Shown in pieces: positions 29,353-31,564 of a DNA stretch of 34,455 nucleotides. The translations under genes and the position numbers were made by a program. The stretch's first letter is position 1. Each line of letters starts with the position of its first letter. Under the pieces are notes generated by a model, which did not search any database, was not told where the DNA came from, and saw only the letters and a program-made list of their open reading frames with translations. Origin of the DNA: a virus; UHGV virus genome UHGV-0162385, one strand, 5' to 3'.

Positions 29353-29411
29353 ACCGCCCCGATCAGAATAGTAATAATGATCTATATATATAACATCGTG
29401 ATCGGGGCGGT
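29353..29411. repeat. Perfect 13-bp GC-rich inverted repeat (accgccccgatca / tgatcggggcggt) flanking a 33-nt AT-rich spacer with tatatatata
   Basis: Seen directly; immediately downstream of the helicase stop; no T-run follows on the minus strand, so not a typical intrinsic terminator. Confidence 0.5.
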
Positions 29412-29420
29412 GGGTCGCCC

Positions 29421-31364
29421 TTATGCAAATTTAAGTTTATTGAATTTGTTCTTTAGGTCTACTGCTTTCTTAACATCCTGTGTTGTGAATGCATCAATAG
29501 ATTTTTCGATCTTGAATCCAATCAAGTTTGTATACTTCACTGCATGAATATATTCTTTAGTACCTTCATTACCGAATCCATAACGCTTAACGAATGGTTG
29601 ATGTACATGAACACGTTTAGGTTTATCAAGTGTAATATAGCGGTTGATGATTTCACGGTATGAACGTTCTTTCACTTCTACTGTATCATTGCTTAAACCT
29701 TGTAGACCTTTCTTAACGATAATGTGATTTTTCCATTCTTTGTTAGATGCCATTAAACTAACATCCCCACAGAATAAATCAGCCAATACTTTACGTGCTA
29801 CATCGTTTGCAATAATCATTAGATCTAAACGAGATAATGTATCATCTGGACACTTAGTTGCAATATGATTCAGTACTAGACTACGAATATCATCGTTTGT
29901 TTGAATGTACTCTAATTCATACCAGCATTTTGCAATAAACTTAGAATCATTGATGTAACCATCGATAACATCATTAACTTGTGATTCTTTCAATCCTGCC
30001 TTACGTAGTTTATTGATACTCTCAAAAAGTCCATCATATTCTTCGTTCTCATACTTATGAACGCCGCTTACAAATGCCTCTTTAAGACTCTCCAGCATCT
30101 CTACACGCTCTTCTTTTGCTTCACGCTTGGATACCTTCATTTCTTCTCTCATCTCGTTACCTTGCGTTTCAAGGCCGTTAACGTCGATGATTTGATTGAA
30201 GATGAAACCTAAATTAACTACGCGAGATTCGAATGTGAACCAGTCATTCTTAGTTTGTTCTAAGCGATGTTTATAATAATCACAATCGATTGCAGTATGT
30301 AGGATATTAAACGTTTCGGTAACTTTATCAAACTTACAGTTACCACCTTTAATTTCCGAATAATATTGATTGATTAGTTTCTTATTACTATTCAAAGAAT
30401 CAATATCATTCTTGTACATTTCTGTTAGAACTGCCTGAAACTTAGTTGACATTGATAATACTAAATCCTTATCAAAATCTACGGCTTCAATATCCTTCAT
30501 TTTATTAACGATGTAATATACATTCTTCACATCACTTACATTACGGAAACGGTTTGCAAACTGTTCTATTGCATCTGGATCACGATGACCATATACGAAT
30601 ACATCAACTTCTTGTAGTTTATCTTTGATTGAAAGACCTTCACGAATACTATCAGTACCGATCACTAATTCGTAATCTGTCATAACGCCAGTACGGTAAA
30701 AGTTTTTTACTGTTTCGTCGTGTTTATTGTCTGCACATACGAAAAGTGCCTTATCACCATATTGTTTTGCAATACGCTTACAAAGTTCTATATCATTCAC
30801 AAGTGCAATAGCTTTCTTACCAGTACCTTTATTTGCAAGTATACGCTGTTCTAAGAATGCTTTACCTTCTTTCTCGTATACATACGGGGTGATAAACTTT
30901 GTTGCTTCTGATGGCTTTCTAACGCGGTATGCACGGTCTATATTAACCGATGTGATGTAATCCAATTCGATTGTACCACTCATCAAAACTACACATTTGA
31001 AGTATTTGAAGATCTTAATCATATCTTCAATTACCAACCCCTTATAATCATAATCACTATACATACCGTGACATTCATCTAACCATAATGTAGTTTTCTT
31101 ATATGCAGTTTCACGTTCTGGATTATTGCGTACTGTACTAATAATACTGTTCCATGTCTTTGCATTACTACCTTCGAACGATTCAACGATTGATACCAGT
31201 GGTGCGGCGAAAAGTGAATTTGGGTATTCACTAGCAACTACCGATTTTCCGATACCTACATCACCATGAATCAGTACTACACCACTTGATAAATCAAAGT
31301 TATCGATAATGTCGCTTAGGTATTCGTTAGAGTCTAAATCATAAATTTCATTGTATTGTTTCAT
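29421..31364 (-). CDS. Superfamily 2 DExH-box helicase-like protein
   Basis: Probable start ATG 31364 (SD aaggatg); Walker A GDVGIGKS, Walker B LWLDECH, motif III MSGT, motif V-like VIGTDSIREGLSI, motif VI-like EQFANRFRN; long coiled-coil C-terminal region. Confidence 0.6.
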   Translation of the reverse strand: MKQYNEIYDLDSNEYLSDIIDNFDLSSGVVLIHGDVGIGKSVVASEYPNSLFAAPLVSIVESFEGSNAKTWNSIISTVRNNPERETAYKKTTLWLDECHGMYSDYDYKGLVIEDMIKIFKYFKCVVLMSGTIELDYITSVNIDRAYRVRKPSEATKFITPYVYEKEGKAFLEQRILANKGTGKKAIALVNDIELCKRIAKQYGDKALFVCADNKHDETVKNFYRTGVMTDYELVIGTDSIREGLSIKDKLQEVDVFVYGHRDPDAIEQFANRFRNVSDVKNVYYIVNKMKDIEAVDFDKDLVLSMSTKFQAVLTEMYKNDIDSLNSNKKLINQYYSEIKGGNCKFDKVTETFNILHTAIDCDYYKHRLEQTKNDWFTFESRVVNLGFIFNQIIDVNGLETQGNEMREEMKVSKREAKEERVEMLESLKEAFVSGVHKYENEEYDGLFESINKLRKAGLKESQVNDVIDGYINDSKFIAKCWYELEYIQTNDDIRSLVLNHIATKCPDDTLSRLDLMIIANDVARKVLADLFCGDVSLMASNKEWKNHIIVKKGLQGLSNDTVEVKERSYREIINRYITLDKPKRVHVHQPFVKRYGFGNEGTKEYIHAVKYTNLIGFKIEKSIDAFTTQDVKKAVDLKNKFNKLKFA

Positions 31365-31414
31365 TTTATCATCCTTGATATTGATTGTTGCTATACTTTT
31401 TATTGGCAAAAGTA

Positions 31415-31564
31415 TCAAATGCCTTTAATTGCTTTTTCATTGATTAGGTATTGGATTGCAGCACTACGTGTTTTTGCCTTACCCGTTTCAATTAGTTTAT
31501 CCAGTAGTTGTACTTGTAGATCATTAAGTTTTACGCCTACCATGTTTTGCTTTTTGTCTGACAT
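31415..31564 (-). CDS. Ribbon-helix-helix (Arc/CopG-like) DNA-binding protein, 49 aa
   Basis: MSDKKQNMVGVKLNDLQVQLLDKLIETGKAKTRSAAIQYLINEKAIKGI: beta-strand then two helices typical of RHH; SD aaaaagga; ~50 nt upstream of the helicase gene. Not in the ORF track. Confidence 0.5.
   Translation of the reverse strand: MSDKKQNMVGVKLNDLQVQLLDKLIETGKAKTRSAAIQYLINEKAIKGI

Follow-up and report, generated by a model that had tools for sequence, protein, structure and literature searches.

What does a perfect, GC-rich palindrome do when it lies directly behind a helicase gene in an otherwise AT-rich phage genome? The question is raised by the UHGV virus genome UHGV-0162385, a stretch of 34,455 nt that was analysed at its full length and is called the window throughout. 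On its minus strand, the gene for a small ribbon-helix-helix (RHH)-like protein precedes the gene for a superfamily 2 (SF2) DExH ATPase/helicase, and the helicase stop codon is followed by an inverted repeat, here termed IR-1. An earlier sequence-only reading of this DNA had proposed a replication initiation module with a candidate origin. Comparison with related loci supports this proposal but does not prove it; among the supporting findings, relatives of the helicase are fused to primase domains, the repeat accompanies the helicase gene in 41 of 43 loci, and genes and repeat are exchanged together as a cassette. To judge from these sequence comparisons, the module is probably a phage replication cassette composed of an SF2 initiator and its cognate palindromic origin, an assignment that we hold with moderate confidence.

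IR-1 (29353-29411) starts 9 nt after the helicase stop codon. Its arms (29353-29365 and 29399-29411) are 13 nt long, 100% complementary and 69% GC, and they enclose a 33 nt spacer (29366-29398) that is 79% AT and holds a (TA)5 tract and one GATC. Each arm carries a GATC as well. The sequence-only reading had described the 13 bp GC-rich repeat, the AT-rich spacer with its TA5 tract and the position right after the stop codon correctly in every detail. Perfect repeats with arms of at least 11 nt and at least 60% GC and a spacer of 16-45 nt occur twice in the window, compared with 0.00 expected from 40 first-order Markov simulations of it. When folded as single-stranded DNA, IR-1 reaches -17 kcal/mol (z = -4.2), and none of 200 shuffled sequences is as stable. 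No further copies of its arms were found in the window or the phage. Among the usual criteria for a theta origin, an AT-rich spacer and GATC enrichment are present, and direct iterons and clustered DnaA boxes are absent. The data fit a DNA unwinding element placed between protein-binding arms, which is how we would interpret the repeat.

To place IR-1 in a wider context, 43 further loci encoding members of the helicase family were collected from E. coli genomes, GTDB genomes and IMG/VR (individual loci are cited by L numbers). Repeats were counted in the 43 loci, window included, with at least 100 nt after the helicase stop codon. The linkage is nearly universal: in 41 of the 43, the region from -500 to +150 nt of the stop codon contains a near-perfect repeat whose AT-rich spacer is 20-38 nt long, and repeat density there is 1.68 per kb versus 0.085 per kb in the remaining 354 kb, a 20-fold difference. 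The sequence-only reading had named absence of the repeat from relatives that keep the helicase as one of two findings that would count against an origin. What we found instead is the same architecture with differing arm sequences (33 distinct inner-arm 10-mers among the loci), kept at its position relative to the helicase down to ~25% protein identity. In almost every locus with a short form of the helicase, the repeat starts 5-40 nt past the stop codon; its arms are perfect and 10-19 bp long, and its AT-rich spacer measures 22-36 nt. Many other members are long forms of 900-1050 aa with an N-terminal extension of ~330 aa, and in these the same element lies in frame, 150-490 nt ahead of the stop codon, where it encodes a poorly conserved surface loop between the invariant residues W544 and I577 (window numbering).

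The repeat arms follow the helicase phylogeny: loci whose helicases share at least 93% identity have the same arms, and so do those of the L008/L009 group, where helicase identity is 83-87%. Between L005 and L021, whose helicases are ~87% identical, three arm positions differ and every change is matched in the other arm. Not a single G-T wobble position occurs in 29 distinct perfect stems. A reading of the arm lists indicates that in many relatives the outer part of the arm resembles AGTGTCNCAC and the inner part is free. A TATA-rich motif is retained in the spacers; of 29 distinct ones, 15 contain GATC, for which ~0.09 occurrences per spacer would be expected. Tandem arrays of two to six elements occur in L013/14, L026, L028, L002 and L046; in those at L026 2880-3687, L046 8480-8640 and L013 3103-3243 the spacing is ~70-340 bp. 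L011 carries two elements ~5 kb apart (6644-6700 and 11611-11663), one of them inside the helicase gene, with near-identical arms (GTGATCCAC...) and mutually reverse-complementary spacers. Arms of the L011 subgroup also resemble a DnaA box (TGATCCACA versus TTATCCACA).

Genes and repeat are also inherited together. Comparison with related loci by blastn delimits a cassette at 29345-31622 (minus strand) that comprises a leader, the RHH-like gene, the helicase gene and IR-1. On the downstream side, window positions 29344..27327 are 88-89% identical to L003 and L020 for 2 kb, the identity resuming 9 nt outside the IR-1 arm. On the upstream side, positions 31912..31623 are 95% identical to L002, and positions 31912..31708 are 93% identical to L003. 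Within the cassette, only ~150 nt of the helicase core can be aligned, at about 70-75% identity. Because the mosaic breakpoints enclose the RHH-like gene, the helicase gene and the repeat exactly, the three constitute one exchangeable unit. It is bordered upstream by a terminator-like hairpin at 31626-31651 and downstream by IR-1 itself.

A trace of an earlier exchange is provided by IR-2 (26872-26929), an orphan element at a mosaic junction. It consists of perfect GC-rich arms of 11 bp, GCAGCGACGCA and TGCGTCGCTGC, around a 36 nt AT-rich spacer with the motif AATGATCTTAATAATATAAC. The long helicase gene of the L002 type contains a repeat with 100% identity to IR-2, and in L046 (strain F8111-1SC3) a fossil 3' fragment of an L002-type helicase gene still follows the element; IR-2 is therefore the relic of a replaced module. 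It is absent from three genomes that otherwise match the window. Its spacer motif is that of IR-1 in reverse (score 32 versus 16 in the same orientation, with 0 of 2000 shuffles reaching 32). Over all loci, spacer orientation is ambiguous for many elements, whose spacers are nearly palindromic, and only the comparison of IR-1 with IR-2 is clear. A co-resident phage of the L002 type might still be able to fire IR-2.

The helicase gene (29421-31364, minus strand) begins with an ATG at 31364 that is preceded by an AAGGA ribosome-binding site. Its product is 647 aa long, with a stop codon following (the sequence-only reading gave 648 aa); the complete Walker A, Walker B and DECH motifs reported there are indeed present. 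Walker A (GDVGIGKS) spans residues 33-40, and DECH occupies residues 96-99 within LWLDECHG. Among 28 family members, SF2 motifs I, II, III, V and VI show no variation (G39 and K40; D96, E97 and H99; G130; G236, T237, S239, E242 and G243; Q268, N271, R272 and R274), S129 and T131 are near-invariant, and the protein has the two tandem RecA-like domains required of SF2. It is thus an SF2 enzyme with intact ATPase motifs. Its C-terminal half (about residues 300-647) is helical and fast-evolving, diverging much faster than the core (for example, 61% versus 31%).

Sequence databases contain little that resembles this protein. A Pfam scan at E <= 0.1 gave only sub-threshold AAA matches, neither PHROGs nor NCBIfam returned a match, and the family profile searched against PDB sequences yielded nothing relevant, with UL9 not recovered at E <= 1. 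The top Foldseek match of a structure model of the helicase is UL9, the SF2 protein of herpes simplex virus (HSV). A word-seeded search of 5.8 billion proteins recovered only 35 helicase clusters, of which those with a named source are all from Enterobacterales and several sit on contigs of about 33-35 kb. Within 1.84 billion clustered proteins, an exhaustive hidden Markov model search gave 519 representatives of the family (E <= 1e-3).

Whether the helicase is replicative or defensive is best judged from the long forms. Their extension contains the invariant sequences VLDIDDG...GDRFRVILPL...RFPYSD, and a profile made from it matches, database-wide, the N-termini of proteins carrying PriCT_1 plus DnaB_C or RepA-type AAA_25 domains (E = 1e-5 to 1e-7); hhalign gives a probability of 97.4% for the alignment with these N-termini. 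In more distant relatives, the same helicase is preceded by the Pfam archaeo-eukaryotic primase (AEP) domain BT4734-like_N, and the N-terminal domain of the long forms has the RRM-like catalytic fold of AEP primases. Since the family is repeatedly fused to primase, we regard it as a replication helicase and not a defensive one. The outcome that the sequence-only reading had named as refuting, homology to a non-replicative family, did not arise. Furthermore, every member of the phage lineage has the helicase where the replication module is placed, and library and homology searches recognised no other replication gene in the whole ~33.7 kb prophage. In the long forms, the AEP motifs DIDD and DRFRV are invariant and motif II reads SSGG, without the histidine of SxH. 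SSGG forms include P0028-P0035 and the proteins of L006, L010, L011, L026 and others; in the distant homologues P0041-P0044 this position reads (T/S)K(S/R)H. The long-form domain may be a divergent or an inactivated primase.

An initiator acting on a cognate origin accounts for the primase fusions and for the AT-rich, GATC-containing spacers, as it does for the linkage of repeat to gene, their co-variation, the exchange as a cassette and the arrays. Under this model, the SF2 ATPase would serve as the initiator encoded by the phage, and probably as the helicase that unwinds the DNA as well. Two copies of the protein, or a dimer, would bind the inverted arms through the variable C-terminal half, and ATP-driven action would open the spacer, the perfect arms possibly being extruded as hairpins. 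Replication would then start at IR-1. In short-form phages such as that of the window, the opened DNA would be primed by host DnaG and Pol III; in long-form relatives the fused AEP domain would prime it.

Several observations weigh against this model. No repeat element was found in two short-form loci, L004 and L034, and the arms of IR-1 lack the outer motif seen in many relatives (again from the arm lists). DnaA boxes are no more frequent in the window than expected (11 matches versus 13.6), and none is located at IR-1. In the C-terminal half of the helicase no DNA-binding fold could be recognised by the searches run, in which fold comparison took the full-length model as query. The window protein has no N-terminal extension and hence no primase domain, nor does any other gene of the phage supply one, so priming would fall to the host; even for the long forms, priming by the AEP domain is uncertain because the motif-II histidine is missing. 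In L026, six tandem elements have differing arms and nearly identical spacers, an arrangement that fits recognition of structure and spacer better than recognition of arm sequence. Perfect complementarity over 10-19 bp likewise exceeds what two protein half-sites need.

There is also a bolder version, in which an extruded hairpin or cruciform with its conserved AT/GATC loop would be recognised in place of iterons. The cassette would then be a bacterial-virus counterpart of UL9/OriS, with an SF2 helicase that reads a palindrome as structure, opens the origin and is replicative without DnaB. Because the palindrome stays within the helicase gene or right beside it, the initiator would evolve jointly with the origin, and the two would move between phages as one specificity cassette. 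We put this version forward tentatively and think it doubtful as it stands.

The closest analogues are UL9/OriS of HSV and RepA of the phages N15 and PY54, by likeness and not by family assignment. HSV OriS consists of inverted GC-rich boxes around an (AT)n spacer and is bound by UL9, with hairpin formation during activation (PMC12543377). Both UL9 and the window helicase are SF2 proteins with an N-terminal two-RecA core, the C-terminal half of UL9 being the DNA-binding part, and both OriS and IR-1 have inverted GC-rich boxes flanking an AT spacer. The window helicase differs in that its sequence does not match the UL9 family model (PF02399) and in that it has no DNA-binding domain at the C terminus that bears the RVKNL recognition motif. 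SF2 is the rarest class assigned as replicative helicase in double-stranded DNA viruses, and the RepA proteins of N15 and PY54 are primase-SF2 helicase fusions whose replicative role was confirmed experimentally (PMC4889955). They resemble the long forms in being phage SF2 replication helicases fused to a primase. However, the primase of N15/PY54 is of the DnaG type (TOPRIM), whereas it is of the AEP type in the long forms and absent from the window protein. Alignment of our family profile with N15 RepA (gp37) by hhalign gave a probability of 38% (E = 3e-4) over 117 columns, covering motifs IV-VI only. Moreover, N15 and PY54 are linear plasmid-prophages, whereas the genomes described here integrate via a serine recombinase. 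The N15/PY54 origin lies inside repA, in the 3' part of the gene, as ori-lambda lies inside gene O, and the in-frame element of the long forms parallels both placements. A comparable repeat was not found in the 3' part of N15 repA.

Similar domain logic is known from other mobile elements. AEPs fused to remote, partly UL9-like SF2 domains, namely the All3500 family and pVOG1685/9714, have been predicted to represent a virus- and plasmid-specific replicative helicase family (Kazlauskas et al., 2018, PMC5862659). They share with the long forms the succession of AEP primase, PriCT-like region and divergent SF2 helicase, which we take as likeness only. Our family differs from these groups in having no PHROG match and in giving no tblastn hit in T4-like phages or SPbeta; no primase domain is present in the window protein, and where these proteins are treated in that study no origin is described for them (PMC5862659). 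In being exchanged as one unit, the RHH-helicase-repeat cassette behaves like the initiator/origin pairs of lambdoid phages. These phages exchange initiator and origin together as a specificity cassette; in lambda, staphylococcal pathogenicity islands (SaPIs) and P2 the origin is found inside or immediately after the initiator gene, and in the copG-repB arrangement of pMV158 a small RHH repressor gene lies directly upstream of the initiator gene. The initiators of pMV158, lambda and SaPIs belong to other families (HUH, lambda O and SaPI Rep helicase, respectively), and their origins use direct iterons, in contrast to the single perfect palindrome seen here.

If the origin assignment is correct, the helicases form a new, unannotated family of phage replication initiators that is absent from Pfam, PHROGs, NCBIfam and PADLOC, and the palindrome is a recognisable cis element for annotating origins in a whole lineage of Enterobacterales prophages. 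The compact 2.3 kb helicase-palindrome cassette, with dozens of natural arm variants, would then offer a tractable E. coli model of how an SF2 protein opens a palindromic origin, a question still open for HSV UL9. The arm variants might also serve as a source of orthogonal replicon parts, and the in-frame origin of the long forms would be a clear case of DNA-level constraint laid over coding sequence.

The RHH-like gene (31415-31564, minus strand) is the first of the cassette. The 49-aa open reading frame (ORF) described by the sequence-only reading exists, and its gap to the helicase gene, estimated there at ~50 nt, is 50 nt. The RHH fold itself is weakly supported: the Pfam model RHH_1 scores below threshold (E = 0.044; 14.2 bits, cutoff 20.5) and matches only one of 17 homologues, and a family profile searched against the PDB gave the NikR RHH domain (E = 0.006), ParD (0.085) and MazE9 (0.17). 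Nearly all related loci have a homologue of it ahead of the helicase gene. We considered the protein as an arm-specific binder and rejected this, because the RHH-like proteins of L002 and L003 are nearly identical (5 of 46 aligned positions differ) and their repeat arms (those of L003 are TGTCACACAAAAAA) and helicases are unrelated; the RHH-like protein therefore does not read the arms. The simplest guess is that it would act as a CopG-style transcriptional (auto)regulator of the operon and not as an origin-recognition factor.

Could IR-1 be a control element for the genes that follow it? In this first alternative, the repeat would be a regulated promoter/operator of the next unit (a 51-aa ORF, a GIY-YIG nuclease gene and a methyltransferase gene), with the TATA-rich spacer supplying the -10 element and the arms binding a regulator or forming a gating structure; the helicase may still be the replication protein. 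TATAAT-like hexamers do occur in many spacers, for example TTATATAATAGA and CCTTATAATACT, the window's TGTTATATA resembles an extended -10 on the coding strand, IR-1 coincides with the junction where the cassette meets the conserved downstream genes, and GATC enrichment would suit Dam-regulated promoters. However, no acceptable -35 element exists at the right distance, and a sigma-70 scan calls no minus-strand promoter and found nothing convincing at IR-1. The spacer motif is flipped between IR-1 and IR-2 though every gene is co-oriented, variation in the arms is not mirrored by the RHH regulator, and it is the helicase, not the set of downstream genes, that the element accompanies. For a promoter it would also be unusual to occur in arrays of up to six copies or in frame within the helicase gene. 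This explanation is unlikely, and it is the one among the alternatives that survives best.

Next comes the possibility that the repeat is a selfish or recombinogenic palindromic element, such as a miniature inverted-repeat transposable element, an element like the Rickettsia palindromic elements or a nuclease target, which marks boundaries and has no role in replication. Repeats at mosaic junctions, IR-2 as a relic where a long-form helicase gene was replaced, and a GIY-YIG/T5orf172 nuclease gene 210 nt downstream would all suit such an element, as would the in-frame copies inside ORFs; Rickettsia palindromic elements likewise occur in frame inside ORFs. However, the copies have no common arm sequence, so no transposing family is indicated, and the arms co-diverge with the helicase. 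The position is conserved in 41 of 43 loci with elements 20-fold rarer elsewhere, and repeats are present also in loci without a GIY-YIG gene nearby. We judge this second alternative to be quite unlikely.

More unlikely still is that the repeat acts in RNA, as an unusual terminator, an RNase III site or a 3' stabiliser of the RHH-helicase mRNA. Its stem is stable, it directly follows the stop codon in the short forms, and a T-run follows the second arm in L005, L016, L021 and L022. In the window, however, the second arm is followed by CCACTGCAAATC with no U-tract, the loop is 33 nt, and a terminator scan called nothing in 28700-32200. A terminator inside the ORF of the long forms would truncate the gene's own transcript, and we therefore count the in-frame placement in favour of an origin. 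The complete lack of G-T wobbles is expected of constraint at the DNA level, the flipped spacer alters the loop sequence, and no Rfam family matches. The evident terminators of the phage also look different. One is the minus-strand hairpin CCCCTTAG...CTAAGGGG followed by TTCTTTT (31626-31651) after a membrane-protein gene, inside a block shared at 95-97% identity by many E. coli prophages whose replication cassettes differ, and the other (32018-32050) follows the integrase gene. Both have 8-9 bp stems, 10-15 nt loops of related sequence (TTAGTCGTGA, minus strand) and a T-run, and, with loops of more than 8 nt, they escaped the consensus terminator scan.

The weakest alternative, raised by the sequence-only reading itself, is a prophage defence or anti-defence ATPase beside an incidental repeat; SF2 ATPases are common in defence systems, the gene is near the integrase, where accessory genes often sit, and relatives give weak ResIII matches, with 25% identity between the helicase and a 'type III restriction enzyme' ORF in two C. 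difficile phages, but PADLOC models match neither the helicase nor the RHH-like protein nor the long form P0028, no nuclease or other effector partner is conserved beside the gene, and the AEP fusions and the constant place in the replication module speak for replication, so that this reading found no support and is highly improbable.

The window as a whole comprises a complete AT-rich (~35% GC) tailed prophage of ~33.7 kb, inserted in and splitting the E. coli chaperone gene yegD; the C-terminal fragment of yegD begins at 33725, and host flank occupies 33678-34455 together with the start of the window. The only near-identical genomes are three Galapagos wastewater isolates, in which the prophage is flanked by both halves of yegD. 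A search of 50,697 phage genomes by blastn and tblastn gave no match to the RHH-helicase-repeat module, and the best matches of the capsid protein there are at most 46% identical over 30% of its length, so that no close cultured phage is available. All phage genes except the lysozyme gene are on the minus strand. Integrase, a 63-aa membrane protein, the RHH-helicase-repeat module and ~7 kb of small early genes are followed by the late genes in the order terminase, portal, capsid-protease fusion, tail and lysis. The sequence-only reading was right that the genome is otherwise AT-rich, and only loosely right that the module adjoins the integrase, a large serine recombinase of 528 aa (32091-33677, minus strand), as the membrane-protein gene and the two intrinsic terminators intervene. 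The GC-skew analysis that it suggested was performed: cumulative skew falls monotonically and is uninformative on the origin because all genes are co-oriented. Neither a CI-like repressor nor a divergent repressor/cro pair could be recognised in the whole prophage, where plus-strand genes are almost absent.

Related prophages of the same layout adjoin rimO (L002) and msyB (L003), and their serine recombinases differ, so that exchange is as free for the integration module as it is for the replication module. The GIY-YIG/T5orf172 nuclease gene (28812-29144) encodes 110 aa and comes after the 51-aa ORF. This pair also follows the helicase in L003, L020 and L046, and a GIY-YIG gene does so in L008. 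Neither Rfam families nor tRNAs were found in the window, and a tRNA-like stretch suspected in L002 was dropped when ARAGORN made no call.

Finally, three genes of the prophage are each split in two, with halves that overlap or adjoin: the terminase large subunit (20618-21667 and 19698-20564; together 19698-21667), the portal gene (18579-19196 and 17789-18658; together 17789-19196) and a DNA methyltransferase gene (28222-28527 and 27750-28301; together 27750-28527), both halves of which match phrog_3820. Decay, programmed frameshifts or intervening elements are possible causes. The terminase split may not be a sequencing error, because the complete genome CP024269 (L046) also annotates its terminase in two pieces.

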